NCBI GenBank assembly: GCA_003140935.1
Contig: PLLJ01000045.1
Span: 2,767-66,766, forward strand
Length of the DNA stretch: 64,000 nt
Direction of reading: 5' to 3'
Source of the DNA: Candidatus Omnitrophota bacterium
Lineage (GTDB): Bacteria > Omnitrophota > Omnitrophia > Omnitrophales > Aquincolibacteriaceae
This document shows, piece after piece, positions 7,122 through 39,560 of this stretch. Positions within the stretch are counted from its first letter, which is position 1, and the number at the start of each line of letters is the position of its first letter. The notes under the pieces were generated by a model. It did not search any database, was not told the origin of the DNA, and saw nothing but the letters and a program-made list of their open reading frames with translations. A program made the translations under genes and the position numbers.

Positions 7122-8945
7122 TTAAAACCGACGGCTCGAGAACTTGACGCCGAAGCGAAGGTCGTAATGGGGAATAAGCGGCGGTTCACCATCTTGTTTG
7201 GCGAACTGGGTCCCGCCCACTCCGACGAATTCGCCGAAGATCGCCGTCTTAGCAAGCCACTCGTTCTCTTTCCACCGTTCGGTCCTGAACGGCATGATCC
7301 TCAGACCTGCGGCGACAAAGTATTGGTTCTGGTAAAAGAACGAAAAGGAGGCATTATTGACGTGCTCGAAGCGCATGTAAGGCATCAAAACAAGTTCGTC
7401 ATTAATGTAGTTTTGCGGCAGCGGGATCCCGGGAAGTTTGATGCCCAGGGTGACTTCTGAGTTAGCAATGAAAGCATTAAAGCTTTTTTCGGAACTGAAA
7501 TTGGTCTTGGAAACGAAATAATTCCCGAAATATTCGCCCCAGACATACTGGTGAAGGTAATCCGAGAAAACCTCGGGTTTCGTCTCGCCAAGCGACGGCG
7601 GTTCTGTGCCCCATTCGTAGTAACACTGAAGACCCCAGACTAGATCGTTGTCACGGCTGTTCGTGATATTGTCCTTGATATTGAATTGATCACCGTACTT
7701 GATATAAAAACGGTAATTCCGCATCCACTCCAGGATCGGGATCCCCCCGAACGGCTGGAAATTCTCAACCCAGGGATTGCGGGCAAGGGGCCGCCATTCC
7801 AAACCTGCCCAAAGCTGTAAATTGCTGGCAAAGTCCGCGGAATCGGACTGCAGGCTGACCGTTTCTTCGATGAAGGGAGAGATATTATCCAGCGGAAAAC
7901 GGATCCCGCTAAAGACCAGGCGATTGGTCCAAAAACCCACCTGCGTGTCGAAGCCTTTGGCCGCGAGGTTGGTCTGGCGCCAAGAGGTCTCGCCGAAGGA
8001 TTGCCACGTGATCGCGGTGCCGCAAGGCGTTCCTTGGAGGACCCCGTACATCTTCTCACCGATGCCCATCTGGTCGGTGAATTTGAGGATGAGTTCTTCT
8101 TCTTTTTTGAATTGTGCGGGCGTTTTGACCTCGATGGGTTTTTCCGCCTCGGGCACATAAACCGGCGCGCTGCGCACGGCCTCGGCGAAATTCCCGCCCC
8201 GCGATTCCACATTCGCTTTACTCGCAATGATCGCGGTCATAGCCTCTTCAGAAGACGCAAACGCCCGGTCCCCGACCCAAAACAGATCCGTGACCTGGCC
8301 CTTCGCGTTGGGGATAGGAAGCTGGCGTATTTCGACCCCTTCGAAATTAGCCGTCTTGAGGTTCTTCTTGATGTAATCGTCGACAGCCTTCACGTCTTTA
8401 AGACCGGAAAGGTGACGGGACTTCACGGCCCCGCCGCCAAAATCCGTCACGATGGAAAATTCGGCGTCCTGCTCACGGGAGTGGCTCTTGAGGACCGGAA
8501 ATCCACGGACCTCGCTCATTTTATGATCGAGCTTTTGCGGGGCCGCGGCAAAAAATTGTTCGGCGAAAAGGTTGGTCGTATGTTCGACCCGGCCTTCAAG
8601 CTGAGAGGCGCGATGGATTCCGGCGGCCGGGGACCGAACGGGTTTTGTTTCTGCGACGGGTGGGGTCATAGGTTGAATCTCAGCCCCAGAAGAAGCCGCG
8701 GGTTGGACCTGAGCCGCAAGCGGGGGGACTTGCTCTGTGGTCACGGCCGGGACCGGGGCAGGTTTTGTTTCCGCGGCAGGTGGAGCAGCAGGTTGGGCCG
8801 CGGGTTGGGCCGCGGGTTGGGCTTCGGCCGTAGAAACGGCCGCGGGTTCTATTTCAACAACGGGAGTTTTTTCTTCGGCAAAAGATGGGAAAGCTGCGGA
8901 TAGAAAAAAAGCAATGAAGAATATTAAAAAGTTTTTAATTCTCAT
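7122..8945 (-). CDS. Secreted outer-membrane protein (~607 aa) with Pro/Ala-rich linker (AAQPAAQPAAQP) and C-terminal putative beta-barrel ending in F
   Basis: ORF track 7122..8984. Signal peptide MRIKNFLIFFIAFFLSAAFPSFA begins at 8945. Alternating amphipathic strands toward C-terminus, terminal ...FSSRRF. Confidence 0.6.
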   Translation of the reverse strand: MRIKNFLIFFIAFFLSAAFPSFAEEKTPVVEIEPAAVSTAEAQPAAQPAAQPAAPPAAETKPAPVPAVTTEQVPPLAAQVQPAASSGAEIQPMTPPVAETKPVRSPAAGIHRASQLEGRVEHTTNLFAEQFFAAAPQKLDHKMSEVRGFPVLKSHSREQDAEFSIVTDFGGGAVKSRHLSGLKDVKAVDDYIKKNLKTANFEGVEIRQLPIPNAKGQVTDLFWVGDRAFASSEEAMTAIIASKANVESRGGNFAEAVRSAPVYVPEAEKPIEVKTPAQFKKEEELILKFTDQMGIGEKMYGVLQGTPCGTAITWQSFGETSWRQTNLAAKGFDTQVGFWTNRLVFSGIRFPLDNISPFIEETVSLQSDSADFASNLQLWAGLEWRPLARNPWVENFQPFGGIPILEWMRNYRFYIKYGDQFNIKDNITNSRDNDLVWGLQCYYEWGTEPPSLGETKPEVFSDYLHQYVWGEYFGNYFVSKTNFSSEKSFNAFIANSEVTLGIKLPGIPLPQNYINDELVLMPYMRFEHVNNASFSFFYQNQYFVAAGLRIMPFRTERWKENEWLAKTAIFGEFVGVGGTQFAKQDGEPPLIPHYDLRFGVKFSSRRF

Positions 8946-9007
8946 CGCCAATAAGTTTTTTCTTTTCGTTGTAACGCATTGCAAAACTTAGGGTAAGGAA
9001 CTGCCGC

Positions 9008-9811
9008 TTACGCTATGCCCAGCACCTGAGGCATATGATAAAGACCCTGCTTCTTTTTCGCAAGAAATTTTGCCGCCAAAAGCGCCCCGCGGGCAAAAGC
9101 TTCGCGCGAGGAAGCCTTGTGGACCAGTTCGATCCGTTCTCCGTCCCCGAAAAAAGATACCGTGTGGTCCCCGACCACGTCCCCGCCCCGGAGCGCGAGC
9201 ACCCCGATCTTGCCTTTTTCACGAACACCGGTCTCGCCTTTGCGCCCGTAAACCACATCCTTATTCATGTCACGGCCCCTGGCCCCAAGCAGGACCTCCA
9301 GGAGCTTCATGGCGGTACCGCTCGGCGCGTCCTTCTTCATCCGGTGATGGATCTCCATGATCTCAAGATCGTAGCTTTCATCCAGCGCTTTTCCCGCGAT
9401 CGCGGCCAGCTTGAAAAGCAGGTTCACGCCCACGCTCATGTTGGGAGATTGCACGATCGGGATCTTACGGGAAGCTGCCTGGATCTGCCGGAGCATGGGA
9501 GCCGGGATCCCCGTAGTCCCGATCACACACGCCGTGTGCGTTTTAAGAGCGGCTTTGAGATTCTCCCGAAGCGCCGAAAAATGGCTGAAATCGATCAGAA
9601 CATCCGCATGTTTCATCGCGGCAGTCGCGTCCTGGGTGATCTTCACGCCCATGAGGTCCCCACCGAGCACCGGCCCGAGGTCCTGGCCCAAAGCGGCATG
9701 CCCGCGTTCTTCAAGCCCGCCCACGATCTTGAAAGCTTTGTCCCGGCTCGCCAGCTGAAGGATGGTCTTTCCCATCCGTCCCGCAGCGCCTGCCATGACG
9801 AGCTTGATCAT
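9008..9811 (-). CDS. dapB: 4-hydroxy-tetrahydrodipicolinate reductase
   Basis: MIKLVMAGAAGRMGKTI... N-terminal NAD(P)-binding GxxGxxG; full-length similarity pattern to DapB. Confidence 0.9.
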   Translation of the reverse strand: MIKLVMAGAAGRMGKTILQLASRDKAFKIVGGLEERGHAALGQDLGPVLGGDLMGVKITQDATAAMKHADVLIDFSHFSALRENLKAALKTHTACVIGTTGIPAPMLRQIQAASRKIPIVQSPNMSVGVNLLFKLAAIAGKALDESYDLEIMEIHHRMKKDAPSGTAMKLLEVLLGARGRDMNKDVVYGRKGETGVREKGKIGVLALRGGDVVGDHTVSFFGDGERIELVHKASSREAFARGALLAAKFLAKKKQGLYHMPQVLGIA

Positions 9812-10695
9812 TTAACGACCCCCAGTTTTTTGAGGACTTCCGCGAGCTTCTTCGCGTTCTCGGGTCTCATCGCGCAAAGCGGCATCCGGAATTCGGGCTT
9901 GATCTTTCCCATCATCCCGAGCGCCGTTTTCACCGGGATCGGATTCGTCTCCATAAAGACGGCTTTGGAGACCGGATAAAGCATCTTATGGATCGAACGC
10001 GCTTCTTCCATGTTCCCGTTCAATGCCGCGGTCACCAGATTCTTCACAAGTCTCGGTGCGATGTTCGCGACGACCGAGATCACGCCGCGCGCGCCGATTG
10101 CGATCAGAGGGAAATTCAGGGAATCCTCCCCTGAAAGGACCGGCAGGTCGCAAAGCTGCATGATCTGATCGGCCTGGTCCATGCTGCCGCTCGCTTCTTT
10201 GATCGCGACGATCGTATCGATCTTGGAAAGACGCGCCACGGTCTCGGGAGCGATGGAGACCCCCGTGCGTCCCGGCACATTGTAAAGCACGATAGGTATA
10301 TCGACGCGACGGGCGAGATATTGATAGTGACGGAAAAGGCCTTCCTGTGTCGGCTTGTTATAATACGGGGTCACGACTAGCACGCCGTCCGCATTGATCC
10401 TTTTGGCATGCTGGATCAGACCGAGCGCCTCGGTCGTATTGTTCGAGCCGCAACCGCAGATCACGGGGATCCGGTGATGGATATACTCGACCACGAACGA
10501 CATGGCCGCGCGATGTTCGATATGCGACATCGTGGCGGATTCGCCCGTCGTGCCGCACGGAACGATCACGTCCGTGCCTTCCTTGAGGTGAAAATCCAAG
10601 AGCCCCTTGAGCGCTTTTTCGTCCACCTTCCCGTTACGGAACGGTGTCACAAGCGCGACCATCGAACCTTCGAAAACAGATCTCTTTTTTTTCAT
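9808..10695 (-). CDS. dapA: 4-hydroxy-tetrahydrodipicolinate synthase
   Basis: VALVTPF...GTTGES...YNVPGRTG motifs; 4-nt overlap with dapB. Confidence 0.9.
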   Translation of the reverse strand: MKKKRSVFEGSMVALVTPFRNGKVDEKALKGLLDFHLKEGTDVIVPCGTTGESATMSHIEHRAAMSFVVEYIHHRIPVICGCGSNNTTEALGLIQHAKRINADGVLVVTPYYNKPTQEGLFRHYQYLARRVDIPIVLYNVPGRTGVSIAPETVARLSKIDTIVAIKEASGSMDQADQIMQLCDLPVLSGEDSLNFPLIAIGARGVISVVANIAPRLVKNLVTAALNGNMEEARSIHKMLYPVSKAVFMETNPIPVKTALGMMGKIKPEFRMPLCAMRPENAKKLAEVLKKLGVVK

Positions 10696-11507
10696 AGAAA
10701 ATATTCCCCTTTGTAAACGAATTGGGCTTTGCCTTCTAAAAAGACTTGGGTGATCTCATTACCTTTTTGCCGCATCTCGATCCGGAGCTTTTCGCCGCTT
10801 TTTGTCAGAACCTGGACGGGCGATTCGACATAGCCCTTGAGAACGCTTACGACCGCCGAGGCCGTAGTCCCCGTGCCGCAGGCGAGCGTTTCGTTCTCCA
10901 CGCCGCGTTCGTAGGTCCGGACCGTGATCTCTTTCTTGCTTTTCACTTCCACAAAATTCACGTTCGTTCCGAACGGCTGGAAACGCGGGTGGTTCCGGAT
11001 GGCCTTACCGTTCTCAAAGACCCCTGTTTTCCCTAGATCTTCCACGAAGATCACCACGTGCGGCACGCCAGTATCGAGAAAGGCGTAAGGGAAACGGTGC
11101 TTCACCACCTCCAGGACCCCGTTCATCTCAAAAATACGCGGCTTCGCGAGCTGGACCCTGACGCTGTCCCGGGGTCCGACCGCGGCTTCGATCATCCCCG
11201 ACCCGGATTCAAAGGTCATGCGCGAAGAATATTTTAAAACCTCATGGGCATAGAGCGCGATGCAACGGAACCCGTTCCCGCACGCCGCGGCCTCCGACCC
11301 GTCCAGATTAAGGATCCGCATCTTAAAATTCGCCCTCTTGGAATTTTCAAACAGCAGGACCCCGTCCGCTCCCGCACCCTGATGGGGACGGCAAACCTCC
11401 CGGGTAAAGGCGAGCGCGTCTTTCACGACCCCCTGGCGGTTATCCACCACGACGAAATCGTTCCCCGAAGCGACCATTTTGTAGAACGGAATAGAGTTTT
11501 TCATATA
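10692..11507 (-). CDS. dapF: Diaminopimelate epimerase (ORF track start 11591; likely start MKNSIPFYKM at 11507)
   Basis: FYKMVASGNDFVVVD, ...ACGNGFRC..., ...ETLACGTGTTASAV catalytic Cys motifs. Confidence 0.85.
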   Translation of the reverse strand, partial: YMKNSIPFYKMVASGNDFVVVDNRQGVVKDALAFTREVCRPHQGAGADGVLLFENSKRANFKMRILNLDGSEAAACGNGFRCIALYAHEVLKYSSRMTFESGSGMIEAAVGPRDSVRVQLAKPRIFEMNGVLEVVKHRFPYAFLDTGVPHVVIFVEDLGKTGVFENGKAIRNHPRFQPFGTNVNFVEVKSKKEITVRTYERGVENETLACGTGTTASAVVSVLKGYVESPVQVLTKSGEKLRIEMRQKGNEITQVFLEGKAQFVYKGEYFL

Positions 11508-11751
11508 AAGGCTTGCCAGTCTTTTGGTTACAAGCTGGTGTATTGTATCAAAAATCCTGGGAACGGGGAAAGGGAAACGCTTTTTTACCATGGGGACTCG
11601 GGACTTGTGCCTCGGGACTCGTTTAAAGAAGAATTTTCGAGTCCCTAGTCCCGTACTGAATGACGGGTAGAAATTAATGGTTATTCAGTACTGCACTGGC
11701 TTCCAATAAAAATTTCAATGAGAGCCAGGCGAACTACGAGTCTCGCGAAAA

Positions 11752-28246: not shown

Positions 28247-29383
28247 CTAAAACGTAAGATACGGCCCGGACTTTTTAAGGACCTTCGTCAGTCTGCCAAG
28301 ATCGCCGAGGGACCGGATCCGGGCACCTTCGCTGCGGAAAGCCATGACGCGATCGACCATCACCTGTCCCAAACCCGGGACGCGGAGCATGCGCTGCGGA
28401 TCATCATGATTCAGGTTCACCGGGAAAAACTCCGGATGCGCATGGGCCCACATTTCTTTCGGGTCGATCGTAAGAGAAAGGTTGCCGCCGGGGTCCAGAG
28501 GGATCTCATCCGCTTGAAATCCGTATTTCCGGATAAGCCAATCGGCCTGGTAAAGCCGGTGTTCGCGGACCAGAAGATCCCGGTTGGCGGCCCCCGAGCT
28601 CTCTCCCGGAAGTTCCGGCGCGCCCGCTCCTCTTTGATAAGCGCTGAAGTAGACGCGGGAAAGCCTCAATTGCTTATACAATTTCCAGGAATACCCCAGG
28701 ATCTCCTTGTCCGTTTCCGTAGAGGCCCCCACCACGAACTGGGTGGTCTGCTTGATCCCGGCATACTCCGCTCCTTTCCCGGTCAGTTTGCTGATCAACT
28801 GAATGGGCCGGATAATGTCCCGCAGATAGTTCTTGGTCGTGCTGAGATGTCTGAAATTCGCCTCACCCGCGGTTTCGATATTTAAAGACACGGCCGTCGC
28901 CAATGAAAGACTCTGGCGGATCGCGGTGTCAGACGCTCCGGGAATGACCTTCAGGTGAATGTAACCCCGGAACTGCGACTTGCGCAAATGGAGGGCCACA
29001 CGATTGATACGCTCCATTGTGGTATCCGGGTCCTTTGCGACCGCACTGCTCAAGAAAAGGCCGCTCACCTTCCGCGCGTGATAGTAGGAAAGAAAAGTCC
29101 GGGTCAATTCCTCGGGGCTTAAACTGCATCGCCGGGCGGCCGAACCCGTCCGGAGCGGACAGTATTTACAATTGTTCACGCATTCGTTGGAAAGAAGCGT
29201 CTTGAAGAGGAAGGTCCGCCCGCCATTCGGGAGAATGACCGGATAGATCCATTTGTTTTCCTGGGACCGGCGGCGGTGTTCCTCCGCTCCTGTCGCGCAG
29301 GCGCAAGCTAGGTCATATTGAGCGTCCCGCGCCAGAATGGCGAGCTTTTCTTCCGCATTGGGACTTCTTTGAATGCCGATCAT
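28247..29383 (-). CDS. Radical SAM protein of the putative DNA modification/repair family, with C-terminal helix-hairpin-helix
   Basis: ECVNNCKYC (CxxxCxxC); C-terminal LRVPGLGQVMVDRV HhH. Confidence 0.7.
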   Translation of the reverse strand: MIGIQRSPNAEEKLAILARDAQYDLACACATGAEEHRRRSQENKWIYPVILPNGGRTFLFKTLLSNECVNNCKYCPLRTGSAARRCSLSPEELTRTFLSYYHARKVSGLFLSSAVAKDPDTTMERINRVALHLRKSQFRGYIHLKVIPGASDTAIRQSLSLATAVSLNIETAGEANFRHLSTTKNYLRDIIRPIQLISKLTGKGAEYAGIKQTTQFVVGASTETDKEILGYSWKLYKQLRLSRVYFSAYQRGAGAPELPGESSGAANRDLLVREHRLYQADWLIRKYGFQADEIPLDPGGNLSLTIDPKEMWAHAHPEFFPVNLNHDDPQRMLRVPGLGQVMVDRVMAFRSEGARIRSLGDLGRLTKVLKKSGPYLTF

Positions 29384-30702: not shown

Positions 30703-31297
30703 TTTTTTTATCCGGTCAATCGGCTCATCTATCTTTTTTCTGACTTTTTTCCTCTCCTCAACCAGGACAATGCCATGATTGATTTAAAAATAAAAAAGGC
30801 GCTACCGCTGTTATGAAGTTATCGACAATAGTAACGCCTCTATTGATAAAAACTCCCCCGCCTGCGATTAAACCGAATGTCGCTTTTGAGGGTAAATGCG
30901 GCATCGCATCCAAGGAATGGCTATTTCTGACGCGGATCGGACAAGATTGTCAAAATCTTGCCGAAGCCGCCCTGGTTTTACATTATTCAAATCAATCGGA
31001 AAACTAGGGCTGCACTAATTTTCTTTTAAAAAAATTTATCGAAAATCAGTGCGTACCAAAGCATTGGGCTTTGATGCATTCAACCGGTCCCCGGGGTGCC
31101 AGCTTGTCCGCCTCTGGCGGAGTACTGTTCTATTCCGCTTCCGGTTGCCATATATCATATCCGCCAAATTTCACGGACGAATCCGTCCACGCTGTGTGGC
31201 GGATATGATATACGGTCTGTCACCGCCCCGCGTCTTTTGTCCTCGTGCCCCGAGCTACGAGTCCCGAGTCCCGTCTTCATTTGTCCCGATTCCCCGT

Positions 31298-31834
31298 TTA
31301 TATCTTTTTCGATTCCTGTTCCAGGCGCTTCATTTCTTCCAGGCTCGAGTTCTCTTCCCCGGCAATCTGTTGTCGGTTGTCCCCATCTTTATTCGAGTCC
31401 CGAGGAGCGAGTCCCGAGTCCCGCGGTGTTTCGTTCGAGTCCCGAGCTACGAGTCCCGAGTCCCGTGGTTTTTCGTCCGTCGTCTTGGCCTCAGGGGAAG
31501 AAAGTCCTTTTTTTGAGTCCTGTTCCAGGCGCTTCATTTCTTCCAGACTCGGGTTCTTTTCCCCGGTAGTCTGTGGTCGGTTGTCCCCATCTTTATTCGA
31601 GTCTCGAGCTACGAGTCCCGAGTCCCTGTCTTTATTCGAGTCCCGAGGAGCGAGTCCCGAGTCCCGCGGCGTTTCGTCAGCCGCAGCTTTATTCGCTCGC
31701 CGGGCCGCGATCGCCGTCCTCGCCGCCCGGATGCCAAAGATCGCGTGCGCCGGAGGCGCTCCGAGAAGAAACGTCCCCGTCACCAGTCCCGCCATCACGA
31801 TTTTAAAAGTTTTCGACATCTCCAACCTCCCCAT
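31298..31834 (-). CDS. Secreted tandem-repeat protein (RDSGLAPRDSNKDGDNR repeats), encoded by a ~230-bp x2 tandem DNA repeat built from the GAGTCCCGAGTCCC motif
   Basis: Signal peptide MSKTFKIVMAGLVTGTFLLGAPPAHA; two ~80-aa repeat units; the underlying DNA is a tandem duplication. Confidence 0.5.
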   Translation of the reverse strand: MGRLEMSKTFKIVMAGLVTGTFLLGAPPAHAIFGIRAARTAIAARRANKAAADETPRDSGLAPRDSNKDRDSGLVARDSNKDGDNRPQTTGEKNPSLEEMKRLEQDSKKGLSSPEAKTTDEKPRDSGLVARDSNETPRDSGLAPRDSNKDGDNRQQIAGEENSSLEEMKRLEQESKKI

Positions 31835-31929
31835 GCTGCGTTGTCCACTTAGGAATTTTATTCAACATGCCCTGAGATTAGAACGGCACTATTCTACGAA
31901 GGAACGGTGAAGAATAAAGTACCATTCCT

Positions 31930-32250
31930 CTATTGTTCTTCCCTCGACCCATTGATCTCATCGCCCCGCGAATATCGTGCGGTGTCTCCGGCCTTATAAT
32001 ATTTTGTGACGGAAATGACGAATTCTAAAAAGCCCCGCGCTTTGAGCTCATCCTTGATCTTCTCCAAAAGCTCCTGTCCCGGATCTTTCTGGCTCCATAT
32101 AAAAAAAGAGAGCGTATCTTTCCGGACGGTCAAATGGTCCACATTCTCATGGGCCCTTAAGATCTGTTCGAGAGGGTGCACATCCTCCAGACGCAGAAAA
32201 CGCGACGGGAATTTGATCTCAATGATCGTTAAAGTGTTTAAAAGTTTCAT
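31930..32250 (-). CDS. Small hypothetical protein (106 aa) tightly bracketed by 34-bp direct repeats
   Basis: MKLLNTLTIIEIKFPSRFLRLEDVHPL...; direct repeats at 31886..31919 and 32252..32286. Confidence 0.45.
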   Translation of the reverse strand: MKLLNTLTIIEIKFPSRFLRLEDVHPLEQILRAHENVDHLTVRKDTLSFFIWSQKDPGQELLEKIKDELKARGFLEFVISVTKYYKAGDTARYSRGDEINGSREEQ

Positions 32251-32358
32251 GCGTACTATTCTACGAAGGAACGGCGAAGAATAAAGCCTTTTGCGGATTA
32301 AAACAACAAACGGAGAAATCAAACAATGGAGTCATCCCTTCCCTCTTTTGGATGGCTG

Positions 32359-32970
32359 TCATCTTTTTTTCAGAGTAGCTTTGTCTTTATAGCTTGTACA
32401 TCGCACATAAAAATCAAATTGAATTAAAAAAAGAAGTATTGCGAACATAATTGTTAGAAATAAATTTTTCGTTAAACTTAATAATCCTATCGCTAATAAA
32501 GTCCCATTTAAAAAAGCCATTAAAAATACGAGGATCGGGAAATGATGCAAAAAACCTTCAAAATGTTTTGGCTCCTCATCGGTTATCGGCAACTTCAAGT
32601 ATTTTGTCAGATCGTCTTCCAGACTATTATCTGTGAAATACTTGCGAGTAAGGTTTGCGCTTTTTGCATAAAAAATCATCCGCATCCTAAGATTCATTAT
32701 GATCGCAAGGAAAATAACTCCTATAACAACTAAAAAAAGAACTATATAGACAAATGGCACTGGCAGATTATACAAGTCCCAAGTGATGGAGTTTATTTCT
32801 CTTGTTAATGCTAAGAATAAAGAAAGCGGAATCGCAATAACACCAAAATAATATTTAAATAATTGATAAAGAATTGTATATAAATGCTCGTAAAGCTCAT
32901 GCAAAAGCTTGTGCTCCTGCATCATAAATTCAAATTCTTGCTGAGCAGATAGTTGAGGATGTTTTTCCAT
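32359..32970 (-). CDS. 4-TM membrane protein, last gene of the AT-rich island cassette
   Basis: AT-rich codon usage; four hydrophobic helices; no recognisable family. Confidence 0.6.
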   Translation of the reverse strand: MEKHPQLSAQQEFEFMMQEHKLLHELYEHLYTILYQLFKYYFGVIAIPLSLFLALTREINSITWDLYNLPVPFVYIVLFLVVIGVIFLAIIMNLRMRMIFYAKSANLTRKYFTDNSLEDDLTKYLKLPITDEEPKHFEGFLHHFPILVFLMAFLNGTLLAIGLLSLTKNLFLTIMFAILLFLIQFDFYVRCTSYKDKATLKKR

Positions 32971-32990
32971 TGCTATCTTTAATGGGGTCG

Positions 32991-34070
32991 TTATTTCCTT
33001 CCCAATCTTTCTAATTCCCGGTTGTATGATTCAAAGCCATGTCTTATGACTATGTTTTGCTCTCGTACTTTTCTTCGAAAAAGTTTAACTTGCCAATCCA
33101 TCCAATTCTGATGAATAAAATAATCCGCAGAAGTCTGCGCGACTCTTGGGTTATAGTTATCGAACGTTTGATTTAAAGGCCGATAACGGCAATCAGCGGT
33201 TTGAACTCCCCATTTTTTACATTCTTTAATTTTTTGCAACATTTCATAAAAATCATGTTCGAAGTTAGATATCATGAACACGTACATCTCTTTTGCTCTG
33301 TATCCGGCTTCGATCAGCATCTCGATTTGTTTTTTTATCATTTGGCGCTGGGAATATCCATGATCCCAAGCGATCCTCGGGTTAAGAAAATGTGCCTGCT
33401 TCAACAATTTCGCCAATTCTGGCGTCAAAAGCCTCCCGTCAATTCCGCACTGACTTTCAGAATAGACCGCTCGCCCATTGCACTTCGCATTCTTCAATTC
33501 ATCCAAAATGTCTTTTATATATGGATTAGCTAAAAGATTATTATCGTAAAAAATTACCCTATTGCTACAAATCTCATCTTTGATACTTTTTTTGGGAATA
33601 AATTCGGGCTCGATTTTCCAAGTTCCGCAGAATTTACATTTTCGCACACATCCTCTTGAAGAATGAACGATCTGATAATCGACATCAACTAAACTGTAAT
33701 CTGGCGCAGATGCTTCCGCCTTTGGATCCACGCCAACAAAAACTTTATCGCATTCAGATTGTTTACAGTGGTCTGGCATGAGTGATGCATAAATGCCACC
33801 GACAGTTATATGGGCCCTGGGATAATTCTTTTTGTAGAATTTCACACTATCCCACACGTATTTGGACCAATAGGTAAATAGAGAGGTAATCTTAATTTCA
33901 TCCGGACAAAACTCTCCAACCAGCTTGTCCCCTCGCACAAGTCGGACTTTATCACCATTTGCTTTGTGGTAACTGGCTAGCTTGAGTAAGCCAACAGGCA
34001 AAAAATCTCGGTGATTTTTGCTTTTTGCTGGAATCGGAAAACCTGGTTCCACTAATAATATTTTAGACAT
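32991..34070 (-). CDS. Radical SAM enzyme with N-terminal B12-binding-like (Rossmann) domain
   Basis: KILLVEPGFP...PVGLLKLASYH...HITVGGIYASLMPD (B12-binding-like); SSRGCVRKCKFCGTW (CxxxCxxC). 8-nt overlap with the upstream HD gene. Confidence 0.75.
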   Translation of the reverse strand: MSKILLVEPGFPIPAKSKNHRDFLPVGLLKLASYHKANGDKVRLVRGDKLVGEFCPDEIKITSLFTYWSKYVWDSVKFYKKNYPRAHITVGGIYASLMPDHCKQSECDKVFVGVDPKAEASAPDYSLVDVDYQIVHSSRGCVRKCKFCGTWKIEPEFIPKKSIKDEICSNRVIFYDNNLLANPYIKDILDELKNAKCNGRAVYSESQCGIDGRLLTPELAKLLKQAHFLNPRIAWDHGYSQRQMIKKQIEMLIEAGYRAKEMYVFMISNFEHDFYEMLQKIKECKKWGVQTADCRYRPLNQTFDNYNPRVAQTSADYFIHQNWMDWQVKLFRRKVREQNIVIRHGFESYNRELERLGRK

Positions 34071-35583
34071 TTTTATTTAACAAGGTTTCTGGTAATTTCA
34101 ATTTAATGCCATTAAATTTTATATTATTCATAACATCTTTGTACTCGGGGAGTTTTCGAGCTAATTGCTCAGGATTAGCCCATCGGACTTTAACTTCAGC
34201 GTAATTATCTTCAAAACGGAAACCATCAAAAATGGCAAATTCCGCCGTTTCTTCGAAAGAACCGTTTCTTTTCCAATCATGTATGCTATCTAAAAAAATT
34301 AATAATACGGCGAAAGGGAAACGAGAAATATTAATCGGGAAGACTTCATGCTTTCTGAGTTCTTTCCAGATTCTGCTGTCATGTAGCGCAATAGAAGTAA
34401 CCGCTGGTATAACATGGGTAACAATTAACGGCCTATTGGGACGGCTGGTCACGACTTTTGATTCGCGTAAAACTCTCACAAGAAATTGAAAACATCCTGT
34501 TACTCCATGCGATCTATGTTTTATCAAATGTTCTCGTAGTATGTCCTTGATACTAGAATCCTCATCTTCTGACATTTCGGGCGTCCAATTATTAAGGATA
34601 CGTTCGGAACAACAATGTCGAATGAAGGATTGTAATTGTATCGCAGCCTGCAAATAATCACTTTTATCAGCGATCTTTTCCAAACCAATTAGTTCTATAT
34701 CCTCATTGTACCCGTACATTTCGCCAATTAAGTTGCCTGCTTTTTGCGAAGGGTAACCAATATCATGGAATATAGAAGTAATTAACCAGATGTATTCGAT
34801 GGAAAAATCTTTTTCCCGAGGAAAAACATTTTTATAATATTTTTGAAATTCCGCATAGTATTTATCGATTATTACGCATCCCATTAACATAACTTGAAAA
34901 GAATGCAAATAATGCTCACGCGTGCCCTTCAATAAGGGCTCATAATATTTCAGCCTCAAGTAAGGTTCCGAAGAATAATGAAATCTTTTATTATCAAAGA
35001 TTTTCTTTATCGTCAAATCAACTAATTCGTATTCCTCCTCTGAGATATTTTTTGTTTTTCTTAATCGTGAATATTTCGATACAAAATCCTTTAGGATTTG
35101 GCGGTATGAAATATTGTCCAAATCGCCAACGTACGATAAAAGCTTATTTGGAACATGTCCATGCTCAGAAGCCGCCTTCTTTTTTATTAGTTGTTTATAT
35201 TTTTTTCCACTAATTGCTTTGGCTTTAATATCAAGAAGTACGGAAAGCGAAGAATTGCTTAACTGAATTAGCCCAAATCCATTATTGAAACATTCAGAAA
35301 ATATCTGATCATATTCATATTCCGGCGGAATATAATAATAAAATTCAAAATTTTTAATTTGTTTTTTTGCTTTGATGATTTCTTTAGCGCCATTCGCTGG
35401 AAAAGCATTGCTTGTATTTATATCAATTGAAATTAATTTGGACTTATAGCGGTAAAGAAGATCTGGGCTCCACGCAATACCTCTTAAAATCCGATCTCCA
35501 GCCTTTTGGGAAAGTCTTCGCCAGTTGTATTTTTTCACTAAAATTTTATTGAGTTTATCTAGAAAAATTTCTTTTTTTGACAT
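34063..35583 (-). CDS. HD-domain phosphohydrolase (506 aa) with dNTP-triphosphohydrolase-like motifs and an uncharacterised ~220-aa N-terminal region
   Basis: TREHYLHSFQV (compare dGTPase RLTHSLEV), SIFHDIGYP (HD), later HRSHGV and LDSIHDW. Confidence 0.7.
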   Translation of the reverse strand: MSKKEIFLDKLNKILVKKYNWRRLSQKAGDRILRGIAWSPDLLYRYKSKLISIDINTSNAFPANGAKEIIKAKKQIKNFEFYYYIPPEYEYDQIFSECFNNGFGLIQLSNSSLSVLLDIKAKAISGKKYKQLIKKKAASEHGHVPNKLLSYVGDLDNISYRQILKDFVSKYSRLRKTKNISEEEYELVDLTIKKIFDNKRFHYSSEPYLRLKYYEPLLKGTREHYLHSFQVMLMGCVIIDKYYAEFQKYYKNVFPREKDFSIEYIWLITSIFHDIGYPSQKAGNLIGEMYGYNEDIELIGLEKIADKSDYLQAAIQLQSFIRHCCSERILNNWTPEMSEDEDSSIKDILREHLIKHRSHGVTGCFQFLVRVLRESKVVTSRPNRPLIVTHVIPAVTSIALHDSRIWKELRKHEVFPINISRFPFAVLLIFLDSIHDWKRNGSFEETAEFAIFDGFRFEDNYAEVKVRWANPEQLARKLPEYKDVMNNIKFNGIKLKLPETLLNKNV

Positions 35584-35593
35584 ATATTTGGAA

Positions 35594-36592
35594 TTATTTG
35601 TTATTTATCATTTGGTCAATGGTGTCTCGAAGTTTTTTTAAAGAAACCAAGATTCCTTCCTTTCTTTTTTTATCAGTTTCCTTCTTTAAATCAAACTCAG
35701 ATAGCTGTGAATTTAATTTATTAATATTTTTAATTAATGAACGGCTTGTTGTTTTGCTGGTCAAGGTGGGTATTTGTACTTTTTTAGTTAAGTCGTTTTT
35801 CAAGTCTTCGATTGTATACTCGATGTTTTCAATAAATCTTTTTGCTGAAGCAGCAAAAATTTCGATTTTGTCCAACTTCTTGCAAGTCATGATGGCATCG
35901 GGTATCCAAAAGAATGCGCGAGTTGTCCCAAGAAGACCTTTTTCTGCTTTCGCTATAAGCTTCCCTCTAATTTCTTCCCTCGAGTGATCCTTAAAAGTTT
36001 GGGGTATGTTTTTTTCTAACTGTTCAACAAAATTTTGTTCTATCTGCACAAGGTAACTGTCATCCAGCTTATTCTCCATAACTTTTTCTTGCGTTTCTTT
36101 ATTAAACCTCAAAAGCCGCAATCTATCTTCGACCTTTTTTCCGTCCATTTTGGTTATCTTTGCTATTTCGCCAATTAGGTCTTGATCGGTTATCGATTTG
36201 TTTTTTCTTTTTATCAAATCAACATAGAATTTTAGCGCTTGGGCTTGCGCCATCGGCTCCCATTGTTCTCTCAGCATGTGAATTTGAAACATTCGTTTTA
36301 AGCCTTCCCCTTGGGCTTTGGCTTTTTTAATGGCCAACACATGGATGGGCACGCCTTCTCGTTTAACTTTTTGAGCAGCTTTAAGCCGTCTTTCGCCATC
36401 GAGCAAAATATATTTTTTGCCTTTTTTGCTATCGTTTTTAAAAACGATCAAAGGCACCATGACTCCAAATTGCCGAATGGATTCCTCTAGTGCTATGAAA
36501 TCCTTATCCTCATAATCCTGGCCTCTGGGATTATCTGGATTGAAAGCTATATCATTAGGAGAAACATACCTGATCTGCTCGTTTTTATTCAT
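35594..36592 (-). CDS. ParB/Sulfiredoxin-like N-terminal domain protein with Lys-rich helical C-terminal half
   Basis: VSPNDIAFNPDNPR...LEESIRQFGVMVPLIV...YILLDGERRLKAAQ (ParB box motifs); GGAGG RBS 6 nt upstream. Confidence 0.75.
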   Translation of the reverse strand: MNKNEQIRYVSPNDIAFNPDNPRGQDYEDKDFIALEESIRQFGVMVPLIVFKNDSKKGKKYILLDGERRLKAAQKVKREGVPIHVLAIKKAKAQGEGLKRMFQIHMLREQWEPMAQAQALKFYVDLIKRKNKSITDQDLIGEIAKITKMDGKKVEDRLRLLRFNKETQEKVMENKLDDSYLVQIEQNFVEQLEKNIPQTFKDHSREEIRGKLIAKAEKGLLGTTRAFFWIPDAIMTCKKLDKIEIFAASAKRFIENIEYTIEDLKNDLTKKVQIPTLTSKTTSRSLIKNINKLNSQLSEFDLKKETDKKRKEGILVSLKKLRDTIDQMINNK

Positions 36593-36761
36593 TCTATACC
36601 TCCATTTATTCCATAAATCATTTAAGATTTTTTATCTTTGTAGACGGAATCGATCCTACTTTCTTTCGTAAGTCAACGGAACACCGTCTGGGGAAAGACG
36701 TTAACTCCCCAATCTTATAGACGCACTCTTCGTTACAGGCAAGGGGAAAAAAGAAACCGCC

Positions 36762-37211
36762 TCAAAGATATAAGGCGCAGACGAAGGCGAGGGCGCCGGC
36801 GACGAGGTTGGCCAGGGTGCCGATGAGCCAGCGCTGGAGGTTATAGGCGGCGATCCGGTTCCTCGCGCTCCAATAGTACATCGGGTCGAGGCCTTCGATA
36901 TGCTCCGGCGTTTTGACGATCAACGCCCACGCCACCCATTTGGAAACGAGCTTGAACGCGAGCCACCCGACGATGATCCTGGCGGAATGCGTGGTGAACG
37001 CGATATAGAACAGGACCACTTCGAGAAGCCCGAGGACTTTGCCGAAGACCGGGCTTACCTGGCCGATGAGGAACGCCTTGGCCAGCTTCTCGTCCACGCA
37101 GTGGTAGTCTTCGCGCTTTCTCAGGAGCCTGAAGAGCCCGCGGATCGCGAACGACAGGAGCACGGCGACGGACAAACCCACCACAAAATGTTTCAGCGCC
37201 AGAAGCTGCAT
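36762..37211 (-). CDS. Membrane protein, unknown (GC-rich host-like composition resumes)
   Basis: Three or four TM helices. Confidence 0.5.
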   Translation of the reverse strand: MQLLALKHFVVGLSVAVLLSFAIRGLFRLLRKREDYHCVDEKLAKAFLIGQVSPVFGKVLGLLEVVLFYIAFTTHSARIIVGWLAFKLVSKWVAWALIVKTPEHIEGLDPMYYWSARNRIAAYNLQRWLIGTLANLVAGALAFVCALYL

Positions 37212-38207: not shown

Positions 38208-39560
38208 TCACCTTTGCATACGAACAGCGTGCCCTTTTTCCAGGAGTTCCTGGTTCACGTAAGTCCCGCCGGCCCAAATGTCGACCAGGTACCTGTCGTA
38301 TTTGTCGGACTTGACGGTCTTGATGAGGATTTGCGCGCTGATTTTTCCATCCGCCATTTTCAACATCTTCTCCATGGCTTCTTTCGCTTCTTTTCCTTCC
38401 TTGCTCACGAGCTCGGGGGCGTCGAGACCGCGCAGGCGCAGGGTCTGCACGCTGCGCACGCCGAAGCCCAGATCGACCACCGCTTCGATCGTGTCGCCGT
38501 CGAGAATGCGGAACACCCAGGCGCGGTAAGTAAAAAGGTCGGCGGAGGTCCGTTTCGAGAGTTTGATCAGATCCGAGGGCGCGGAACCCGCTCCCGGGAA
38601 CGCGGGCATCACTTCGATGATCGCCCCTTCCTTGAAACGGAGGTCCCGGGACGTCCGGTAATAATTGGAGAACCCGAGGTCGATCACCGCCTTGCCGGTC
38701 TCGGGGCCCGCGGCGGCTTTGACGATCTTATAAGTCCCGGGCTTCCCCGGCTTGGCCGTGAGCGGGGTTTCTTTCACCGGCGCCGGCGCCTCATTTTTCG
38801 CGGCCTTGCGCTTTTTCACTTCTTCACGTACCTGGTCGCGGGTCCAGTTTTCTTTTTCAGCCATGGCCGCGACCTCGTCTTGCTCCTTGATATCATTCAG
38901 CGAAAGAAGCTCCTCATAATGGCTCCAGCTCAATTTTCCCGCGGGCGGGGAAATCGGGTAATCGCGGGCGAACTGAAGCATGGCGTACAGCTGGGTCTCG
39001 CTGATGGGCAAGTCTCCGGACAATCTTAAGATCACCTGCTTGCCGTAATCCGCGCGCTCCTTGTGCTGGAGCACGTGCTCGTCGATCAGTTTGCCGATCT
39101 CCCACGCCTCGCGGACTTTTTCCTGTTGGGCGGCCTGCTCCACACGGGCCTCGCTGGCCGCGTGGGCCTTGCGAATGGCGGCGACGAGCTGCTCGTAAGT
39201 TCCAACCTGGGTCGCGAGCACTGTAGACGATGGTCCCAAATCGTCACCGGGCCGTGCCTGTTCACGGCGCTCTTCAGCCGTCCCTGTGGGACTGGGAACA
39301 GGCGAGGTCTGGACCTGCGGCGCGGGCACTGTAGACGATTGTCCCAGATCGTCACTGTGCCGTGCCTGTTCACTGGGAACAGGTGCGGGGACCGGCGGGT
39401 TCATCGAAGGGACCTGCCCTGAGCTTGCCGAAGGGGCCTGCGAAGACGAGGACTTCAAGTCCCCGCGAGCGTGCTGAGGAACCGGGTCCTCAGCCTGCAA
39501 GGACGGGGATATCCAGAGGAGCGTGAGGAAAATACCGAGGGTGATCGTCGTCGTCTTCAT
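38208..39560 (-). CDS. Secreted multidomain protein: signal peptide, low-complexity duplicated segment, YhcG/DUF1016-N-like helical domain, and C-terminal staphylococcal-nuclease (SNase)-like domain
   Basis: MKTTTITLGIFLTLLWISPSLQA signal. Two copies of ARxxDDLGxSSTVxAxQV. SNase-like GDTIEAVVDLGFGV...LRGLDAPE...DKYDRYLVDIWAGG. Confidence 0.65.
   Translation of the reverse strand: MKTTTITLGIFLTLLWISPSLQAEDPVPQHARGDLKSSSSQAPSASSGQVPSMNPPVPAPVPSEQARHSDDLGQSSTVPAPQVQTSPVPSPTGTAEERREQARPGDDLGPSSTVLATQVGTYEQLVAAIRKAHAASEARVEQAAQQEKVREAWEIGKLIDEHVLQHKERADYGKQVILRLSGDLPISETQLYAMLQFARDYPISPPAGKLSWSHYEELLSLNDIKEQDEVAAMAEKENWTRDQVREEVKKRKAAKNEAPAPVKETPLTAKPGKPGTYKIVKAAAGPETGKAVIDLGFSNYYRTSRDLRFKEGAIIEVMPAFPGAGSAPSDLIKLSKRTSADLFTYRAWVFRILDGDTIEAVVDLGFGVRSVQTLRLRGLDAPELVSKEGKEAKEAMEKMLKMADGKISAQILIKTVKSDKYDRYLVDIWAGGTYVNQELLEKGHAVRMQR

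Follow-up and report, generated by a model that had tools for sequence, protein, structure and literature searches.

A ParB-like gene in a 64,000-nucleotide stretch of Candidatus Omnitrophota bacterium contig PLLJ01000045.1 (hereafter "the window", meaning the whole 64-kb stretch that was analysed) is, almost beyond doubt, a member of a conserved three-gene cassette. In this cassette it precedes the genes for a 506-amino-acid (aa) HD-like protein and a 359-aa radical S-adenosylmethionine (SAM) protein. We give roughly even odds (about 0.5) to the reading that the ParB-like protein is the DNA-binding nucleotide-switch subunit of a modification or restriction-like system, formed together with the HD-like protein and a cobalamin-domain radical SAM enzyme. 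An earlier note on this DNA had described the gene as stand-alone. It is instead the first gene of an operon whose composition was found at 13 of 13 loci. The operon is 3.6 kb long and lies on one strand; in the window a gap of 10 nt separates the ParB-like gene from the 506-aa gene, which in turn overlaps the 359-aa gene by 8 nt. The three genes are:

35594–36592, minus strand: ParB-like gene, 332 aa, with a ParB_N domain, a ParB-type helix-turn-helix (HTH) and a family-specific helical C-terminal domain (open reading frame (ORF), Pfam, PDB profiles, AlphaFold2 (AF2) and Foldseek).
34063–35583, minus strand: HD-like partner, 506 aa, with an N-terminal alpha/beta domain (residues 1–125), a helical linker and a putative HD-type metal-dependent hydrolase core.
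32991–34070, minus strand: radical SAM partner, 359 aa, with a B12-binding-like Rossmann N-terminal domain and a CX3CX2C motif; the hub gene of a wider family.

Conservation of the three-gene cassette

The order ParB-like, HD-like, radical SAM was found, with the same spacing, at the loci of three orthologues that have unrelated neighbourhoods, and the same order of the trio recurs in the eight loci L001 to L008. A scan for the 506-aa family, using one genome per species, yielded ten loci, whose six-frame ORFs were then searched with hidden Markov models (HMMs). The scan loci come from Ca. Velamenicoccus archaeovorus (Omnitrophota), Zixibacteria, Aminicenantes, Sedimentisphaerales, Planctomycetota and unclassified metagenome-assembled genomes. 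In all nine of the scan loci that retain flanking sequence, representing at least four phyla, the trio is adjacent and co-directional, even where the middle protein is 25–32% identical.

All-against-all clustering of the neighbouring genes showed that the gene clusters common to all 13 non-redundant loci are these three and no others, and that the flanking genes differ at every locus. A fourth core gene was considered and rejected, as the 203-aa membrane protein, the 130-aa ORF and the HTH_17 gene are not found in all 13 loci. The stop codon of the ParB-like gene overlaps the start of the HD-like gene at several loci. Nonsynonymous divergence (dN) is 0.14–0.19 across all three cassette genes, with synonymous divergence (dS) saturated; the similar dN of the three genes fits a co-inherited unit. 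Close homologues of the ParB-like and of the HD-like protein number about ten among 5.8 billion clusters. The cassette is rare, patchy and, by all appearances, horizontally mobile.

The ParB-like protein combines a near-canonical ParB half with a family-specific domain

The intact 332-aa ORF was confirmed at 35594–36592, with FNPDNPR at residues 17–23 and GERRLKAAQ at residues 66–74. The ParB N-terminal domain that the earlier note had recognised by these two motifs is borne out by Pfam (ParB_N, PF02195; 47.7 bits against a gathering cutoff of 26.3, E = 1.6e-12, residues 5–93). In 61 relatives G66-E67-R68-R69, which holds the phosphate-binding GxxR motif (Box II), is invariant and N21-P22-R23 nearly so. 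The orthologues (n = 11) are 67–100% identical, with a mean column identity of 81%, and comparison with four of them gave a dN of 0.14–0.16 with dS saturated. Because dN is low while dS is saturated, and because the orthologues are conserved, we consider the gene to be real, functional and under purifying selection. The protein is divided as follows:

36314–36580, minus strand: ParB_N (ParB/Srx, cytidine triphosphatase (CTPase) fold) domain, residues 5–93, with NPR at 21–23 and GERR at 66–69.
About 36269–36283, minus strand: equivalent of the ENLQR box, I-H105-M-L-R108, directly downstream of the ParB_N domain.
36062–36256, minus strand: ParB-type HTH DNA-binding region, residues ~113–177 (HMMER alignment, weak Pfam HTH_ParB match, Foldseek).
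35597–36061, minus strand: family-specific all-helical C-terminal domain, residues 178–332 (AF2 secondary structure, family HMM alignment).

A profile of the close clade, compared to the PDB, aligned residues ~9–176 with Spo0J of H. pylori (4umk, 1e-9), Spo0J of B. subtilis (6sdk) and Noc (7ol9), and Pfam HTH_ParB matched weakly at residues 142–177. The AF2 model has a mean predicted local distance difference test score (pLDDT) of 87. Foldseek matched this model to ParB-CDP, Noc, Caulobacter ParB-CTPγS, KorB, Myxococcus ParB and pNOB8 ParB at E values from 1e-7 to 1e-4, with matches that include 7bm8 and 8qa9, ~210 aligned columns and a probability of 1.00 for ParB-CDP (6sdk) and others. Among the top matches KorB (8qa9, E = 3e-7) had the highest TM-score (~0.4/0.6). 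Sulfiredoxin, SbnI and SerK were weak matches (E above 0.008), and no DndB, SspE or GmrSD structure was among the 50 Foldseek matches listed.

The best NCBIfam model was nucleoid_noc (TIGR04285; E = 5.8e-14, 52.1 bits against a cutoff of 315), and parB_part (TIGR00180) reached 47.5 bits against a cutoff of 58.45 (E = 1.7e-12). GmrSD_N/DUF262 (PF03235) scored 20.9 bits, below its gathering cutoff of 33.2. None of the PADLOC models, DndB, DpdB and SspE included, matched the protein at E ≤ 0.1, and there was no NCBIfam DndB match. Membership in DndB, DpdB or GmrSD was rejected on these HMM scores. The likeness to DndB and DpdB that the earlier note had drawn does not extend to the protein itself, since the HMM comparison favours the ParB/Noc/RepB type over DndB, DpdB, SspE and GmrSD; it does hold at the level of the system, where DGQHR proteins adjoin homologues of the cassette's radical SAM gene (see below).

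The C-terminal half had been described as a helical region rather than a canonical dimerisation domain. Residues 178–329 of the AF2 model are indeed all-helical and Pfam finds no ParB C-terminal dimerisation domain (PF23552) in the window protein, but the ParB HTH runs to ~176, so that only ~180–332 is family-specific. In the precomputed Pfam lists of relatives PF23552 is present in the remote matches P0063–P0065 alone. The helical C-terminal domain is also kept in relatives that are fused to a restriction endonuclease (REase) or AF_1680 domain, where it lies N-terminal to the fused domain, and the ParB-like family HMM aligns its positions 6–314 to the ParB-REase fusion protein. Sequence and predicted structure together indicate a near-canonical ParB N-terminal half followed by a family-specific helical C-terminal domain (178–332), and place the protein nearest to the ParBs that act as cytidine triphosphate (CTP) clamps, namely Spo0J, Noc and KorB. 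Within the ParB-CTPase fold it constitutes a new branch.

In place of the ENLQR hydrolysis box (Box III) this protein has I-H105-M-L-R108, which lacks the glutamate. In B. subtilis ParB, G77 and R80 are required for CTP binding, and E78 and E111 (the latter of ENLQR) for hydrolysis, while PadC, which is without ENLQR, binds CTP and does not hydrolyse it (PMC8494293). With GERR and NPR intact, the ENLQR glutamate absent and PadC as a precedent, we infer that the protein still binds a nucleotide and that it would hydrolyse it slowly or with the help of a partner.

The HD-like and radical SAM partners

An exhaustive profile search returned 559 representatives of the HD-like family at E ≤ 1e-3. 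Eleven residues are invariant in 74 diverse members with 20–30% identity: H224, H227, G235, W266, H273, D274, H359, H401, L428, D432 and R439. Among these, H227, H273-D274, H359, H401 and D432 correspond, as judged from the alignment, to the metal-ligand pattern of HD-type enzymes, and the 506-aa protein is probably an HD-type metal-dependent hydrolase. The match to TIGR03401 was weak (E = 0.036), and searches of the PDB with sequence profiles of the family gave nothing usable. Foldseek on the AF2 model (domain 1–125) gave non-significant matches, mostly to PD-(D/E)xK nucleases. No ParB/HD fusion protein was found among the 150 top representatives of the family, whose N-terminal extensions were uninformative, and no homology of the HD-like N-terminal domain to the ParB-fused REase or AF_1680 domains was detected.

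The radical SAM protein has a Rossmann domain at its N-terminus and three invariant cysteines, C141, C145 and C148, in a CX3CX2C arrangement. Single sequences score 27.6–29.1 bits with the Radical_SAM profile, just under the cutoff of 29.5, and precomputed PF04055 matches are present in many family members. The B12-binding profile (PF02310) reaches 36.1 bits in one family member (L027), above the cutoff of 32.1, and 18 bits in the same region of the window protein. These features identify the 359-aa protein as a predicted cobalamin-domain (class B-type) radical SAM enzyme. Its homologues number at least 3794 and are spread over phyla of both bacteria and archaea; in more than 120 clusters identity to the window protein is 64–78%. 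The gene context of these homologues marks the enzyme as the hub of a wider cassette family, whose partners are DNA-acting NTPases and nucleases.

Sister architectures and their genomic neighbours

In some distant relatives the ParB module is fused at its C-terminus to a DpnII/MboI-type REase domain (E = 4e-26), and a homologue of the radical SAM protein follows directly (451 bits). In others the ParB module is fused to an AF_1680 domain, again with a radical SAM homologue directly after it (465 bits). The HD-like gene is absent beside both kinds of fusion. With the fusions standing in for the HD-like gene before the radical SAM gene, what stays constant is the pairing of ParB-like and radical SAM proteins, and the effector that makes up the third module can be exchanged. 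In locus L021 (432–1982, protein P0023) the ParB-fused AF_1680 domain contains the string IRNECAHP, which by eye resembles the HEPN Rx4H RNase motif.

Context look-ups together with a metagenome sample gave 23 sampled loci. The order GHKL ATPase, PP_RS20740-like protein, radical SAM was found in 9 of the 23; two have a ParB, a 140-aa protein, an SNF2 protein and a second ParB before the radical SAM gene, and one has the architecture of the window. The commonest radical SAM architecture (L022–L024, L027–L028 and L034–L049) consists of a GHKL/MORC-type ATPase of ~550 aa, a PP_RS20740-like protein of ~335 aa and the radical SAM protein, with no ParB; it also appears to be undescribed. The ~335-aa proteins upstream of radical SAM genes were considered as truncated HD-like proteins and this was rejected, as they have no match to the HD-like family HMM and are PP_RS20740-like or a second ParB-like protein.

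On plasmids of Rhizobium and Agrobacterium a DGQHR protein, matched by the PADLOC DpdB model (2e-16 and 2e-7), is followed directly by a 543-aa radical SAM protein of the same family (158 bits) and then by a GHKL ATPase, with PIN-like proteins encoded nearby. These Rhizobiaceae loci, L057 (Agrobacterium sp. S7/73 plasmid NZ_CP072139.1, 167176–173880) and L058 (Rhizobium sophoriradicis pCC511_1, 88763–100665), belong to cultured, tractable organisms.

The cassettes often lie beside restriction-modification (R-M) and toxin-antitoxin genes; their neighbours include Type I R-M, AbiEii, HEPN/NTase, BrnT/A, PIN/RHH, and PbeA/C- and DpdF-like genes. At 5 of about 29 distinct loci, which represent three architectures (L002, L005, L022/L039, L035 and L037), no more than 150 nt lie between the radical SAM stop codon and the start of a co-directional Type I R-M operon (hsdM-hsdS-hsdR); in L037 the operon overlaps that stop codon by 4 nt. 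This adjacency could reflect a functional link and not just co-location in islands. Immediately downstream of the cassette on the Omnitrophota-like contig L001, positions 7976–10969 hold an intein-interrupted gene for the RNA ligase RtcB and an adjacent archease gene.

Proposed function and alternative explanations

We think it fairly probable that the cassette serves conflict, defence or DNA modification. ParB-CTPase-fold proteins are increasingly seen as general nucleotide switches beyond chromosome segregation, and the nucleotide that they prefer could not be read from sequence or from AlphaFold3 in a 2025 survey (PMC12704722). In the mechanism that we propose, the NPR and GERR boxes would let a dimer of the ParB-like protein bind a nucleoside triphosphate (NTP), probably CTP although sequence does not tell which, and the dimer would close on DNA. 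Hydrolysis would be slow or would depend on a partner, the glutamate of ENLQR being absent. Loaded on DNA, the protein may position or license the radical SAM enzyme for DNA modification, by analogy with DpdB and DpdA. The HD-like protein would be the nuclease or phosphohydrolase effector arm, a place that the DpnII/MboI-type REase or the AF_1680 domain may take in the sister systems. This division of labour, with ParB as the clamp, the radical SAM enzyme as the DNA modifier and the HD-like protein as the effector, is offered tentatively, and we would sooner expect some part of it to be wrong than all of it to be right.

Several observations weigh against this reading. Of 28 ParB-fold proteins tested, 17 bound no NTP (PMC12704722). 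The Pfam HD model matches 2 of the 74 HD-like members, and these weakly (E = 0.002). An hhalign comparison of the HD-like protein with E. coli Dgt was in register on the HS..V and HDIG motifs and non-significant (probability 1.7%). The AF2 model of the HD-like protein, built from a 10-sequence alignment, is poor (pLDDT 51), being confident at residues 1–125 only and below 50 in the HD region. PDB profile searches with the radical SAM family found nothing. The AF_1680 effector may be RNase-like, which would fit abortive infection better than classical R-M. Several cassette loci lie amid housekeeping genes (enolase, purA, clpP, tig, archease/RtcB, serS) with no defence gene nearby. No PADLOC-DB v2 model matches the ParB-like, HD-like or radical SAM protein, or the radical SAM protein in the other architectures, and searches of the full-text literature found no description of the system, including in the 2024 reappraisal of Dnd and the 2025 survey of the ParB fold.

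It is very improbable that the gene encodes an ordinary partition ParB of a chromosome or plasmid whose parA and parS lie beyond what the earlier note had in view. Partition ParBs and Noc give the top matches in sequence and fold, and the JGI annotation reads "ParB/RepB/Spo0J family partition protein", but no partition-family model scores above its curated cutoff (parB_part and Noc as given above), and both the C-terminal dimerisation domain and ENLQR are missing. The earlier note had reported no parA, parS or plasmid context, and the searches agree. A tblastn search of the 64 kb with Soj of B. subtilis detected no ParA, the best alignment covering 59 aa at E = 0.027. The canonical parS consensus TGTTNCACGTGAAACA, with up to 3 mismatches allowed, has one palindromic site (3 mismatches, counted on both strands), a chance level that 30 of 100 shuffled sequences equalled, and no ParA-like gene cluster is shared by the 13 cassette loci. 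No close relatives of the protein were found on 72,556 plasmids or in 50,697 phages (identity 29.8% or less). A partition module was rejected on the lack of parA, of canonical parS above chance and of close plasmid or phage relatives; the parA gene and centromere repeats that would have spoken against the note, had they lain just outside its reading, did not turn up in these ParA and canonical parS searches of the 64 kb. We also consider it unlikely, if compatible with a switch subunit, that the ParB-like protein is a mere CTP-dependent repressor of the KorB or Noc kind that silences a toxic module of HD-like and radical SAM proteins. Foldseek similarity to KorB and Noc, the HTH domain, the position as first gene of the operon and the conserved upstream leader are in line with such a role, as is DndB, a negative regulator of the dnd genes according to a report cited in PMC10853773. 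However, relatives carry this ParB module in covalent fusion with effector domains of the nuclease type, which would be unexpected for a simple repressor, and the translational coupling of the ParB-like and HD-like genes suggests that their products form a stoichiometric complex. Moreover, a separate HTH_17 gene before the operon in L002, L005 and L009 is a better candidate for the regulator, and no conserved palindromic operator was seen in the upstream regions inspected by eye.

A further explanation, to which we likewise give little weight, is an antiviral or antimetabolite nucleotide-analogue pathway in which the HD phosphohydrolase would act with the B12-type radical SAM enzyme to make a modified nucleotide or deoxynucleotide, as OxsB/OxsA do or as viperin makes ddhCTP, with the ParB-like protein as NTP sensor or for substrate delivery. 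The pairing of an HD-like protein with a B12-domain radical SAM protein is what this explanation would lead one to expect, the non-significant alignment mentioned above puts the HD motifs in register with a dNTP triphosphohydrolase (Dgt), and the ParB fold binds NTPs (PMC12704722). Yet the HD-like protein is dispensable, its place being taken by the DpnII/MboI REase, by AF_1680 or by the GHKL and PP_RS20740-like pair; the recurrent partners of the radical SAM protein act on DNA (ParB HTH, SNF2 helicases, MutL/MORC-type GHKL and DpdB-like proteins); and PDB profile searches detected no similarity of the radical SAM protein to OxsB or viperin. If the cassette nevertheless makes a nucleotide analogue, it would represent a new antiviral metabolite pathway. 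Less likely still is a housekeeping or metabolic operon without a link to genetic conflict, one that modifies, for example, a cofactor, a lipid or RNA and has the ParB-fold protein as a kinase or NTPase like SerK or SbnI. Class B radical SAM enzymes act mostly on small molecules, and the loci embedded among housekeeping genes listed above fit such an operon, whereas the rare and patchy cassette, its low-GC island and its flanks, different at every locus, do not. Neither do the Type I R-M and toxin-antitoxin modules that repeatedly lie directly beside it, the nuclease fusions of relatives, the weakness of the SerK, SbnI and Srx fold matches and the presence of a DNA-binding HTH domain.

Returning to the ParB-like protein as the switch subunit of a modification or restriction-like system, the family is a conserved case of a near-canonical ParB, with nucleotide-binding domain and HTH, that is wired to a radical SAM protein and a hydrolase or nuclease and not to ParA. 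If the radical SAM enzyme modifies DNA, this would mean a new DNA modification chemistry and a new class of defence system. A bolder version, which we regard as doubtful, is a new R-M-like class of immunity. In it the cobalamin radical SAM enzyme would install a DNA mark by radical chemistry, for example a methyl group on an unactivated carbon, an NTP-gated clamp or motor (ParB-CTPase, GHKL, SNF2 or DpdB-like) would deliver or license it, and interchangeable nucleases (HD-like, DpnII/MboI-type, PIN or AF_1680) would cut unmarked DNA. Were this class to exist, the ParB CTP switch would gain a role in defence and epigenetic self-marking a new chemistry.

The locus and its low-GC island

The cassette of the window is carried by a 4.4-kb island of low GC content (~32.3–36.7 kb) that begins directly past the terminator-like hairpin of the upstream host gene. 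The elements of the island other than the cassette genes are:

32300–36700, no strand: low-GC island carrying the cassette (GC 0.27–0.45 against about 0.55–0.60 in the flanks).
36593–36757, minus strand: upstream non-coding leader of the operon, of which the last ~50 nt and a GGAGG ribosome-binding site are kept in the close clade.
36758–36777, minus strand: terminator-like hairpin that ends the upstream host gene (36762–37211); right edge of the island (hairpin and GC profile).
32359–32970, minus strand: multi-pass membrane protein, 203 aa, accessory cargo and not core; low in GC like the island and without a family match.

The flanks consist of lysA/argH/argG/argF-type ORFs, and because of these the setting is taken to be chromosomal. 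No tRNA was found in the window. The composition points to a horizontally acquired island. The island role that the earlier note had suggested agrees with this and with a context that leans towards DNA modification or defence. None of the other 12 cassette loci has a counterpart of the 203-aa membrane protein. In three loci of the close clade, L002 (3010–3186), L005 (5222–5392) and L009 (upstream of 5998), a small HTH_17 (excisionase/MerR-like) gene stands immediately before the ParB-like gene. Unlike these loci, the window has no such gene, and its conserved leader of ~50 nt directly adjoins host sequence. The 130-aa ORF at 31930–32322 (minus strand), on the left edge of the island, is bracketed by a 32-nt direct repeat, 97% identical (31888–31919 and 32255–32286). 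The repeat may be the scar of an insertion or a duplication, and the right edge yielded no third copy.

Elsewhere in the window, a 450-aa fusion of DUF1016_N with a staphylococcal nuclease, with a low-complexity N-terminus, is encoded at 38208–39560 (minus strand), 1.6 kb from the island, and matches the PADLOC candidate PDC-S02 (E = 6e-23). A second, unrelated radical SAM gene lies at 28247–29383 (minus strand) and scores 279.8 bits with TIGR03916, "putative DNA modification/repair radical SAM protein", against a cutoff of 343.5; the UDG-like partner usual for genes of this type was not detected adjacent to it. The 16-nt motif CGAGTCCCGAGTCCCG occurs in 9 copies with at most one mismatch, all on the plus strand, where 0 are expected by chance. 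Copies are found at 11638, 25311, 28225 and 29418 and, five in number, at 31258–31666. These five fall within a repetitive 178-aa ORF (31298–31834, minus strand) with PRDSG/RDSNKD repeats, and the others lie near gene ends. The motif may be a dispersed element of the repetitive extragenic palindromic (REP) type.

Comparison with known systems

Like Spo0J/ParB, Noc and KorB, its best matches in sequence profile and predicted fold (6sdk, 7ol9, 7bm8, 8qa9), the window protein has NPR and GERR boxes in its ParB_N domain and a ParB-type HTH after it. It differs from them in that parA, parS and a canonical C-terminal dimerisation domain are missing, IHMLR takes the place of ENLQR, the scores lie under the family cutoffs, and the gene belongs to an operon with HD-like and radical SAM genes.

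OxsA and OxsB of oxetanocin A are a pair of an HD phosphohydrolase and a B12-dependent radical SAM enzyme, and prokaryotic viperins are radical SAM enzymes in antiviral defence. The cassette has no detectable sequence similarity to either; its HD-like protein is replaceable by nucleases, and a DNA-binding ParB module is present. As for the MORC/GHKL restriction systems (BbrUII/HgiDII-type and MzaB), the GHKL protein of the commonest radical SAM architecture weakly matches the MutL, BbrUII/HgiDII and MzaB models, which suggests that the GHKL ATPase serves there as the NTP switch, a role equivalent to that of the ParB-like protein here. The GHKL fold, however, is different from that of ParB, and the window has no GHKL gene.

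DpdB offers the closest functional analogy. It is a ParB-fold ATPase, and its ATP hydrolysis is required for the insertion of preQ0 into DNA by DpdA (PMC10164549). There, as is proposed for the cassette, the gene of a ParB-fold NTPase lies beside that of a DNA-modifying enzyme, one that in the Dpd case needs it, and on the Rhizobiaceae plasmids DpdB-like DGQHR proteins are encoded directly upstream of homologues of the cassette's radical SAM protein. The window protein differs in having DGERR and not DGQQR or DGQHR, and it has no PADLOC DpdB or DndB match, though the DpdB model detects the Rhizobiaceae DGQHR proteins. The cassette partner is also a radical SAM protein and not a TGT-like transglycosylase, for which there is no gene in the cassette. 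DndB, SspE and GmrSD likewise place a ParB/Srx fold in DNA modification or restriction, sometimes fused to a nuclease, as in the ParB-REase fusions of the sister branch; they differ in that none of their models matches the window protein significantly and none of their structures is among the 50 Foldseek matches listed. The cassette is best filed with the ParB-fold-assisted modification and restriction systems, Dnd, Ssp and Dpd.

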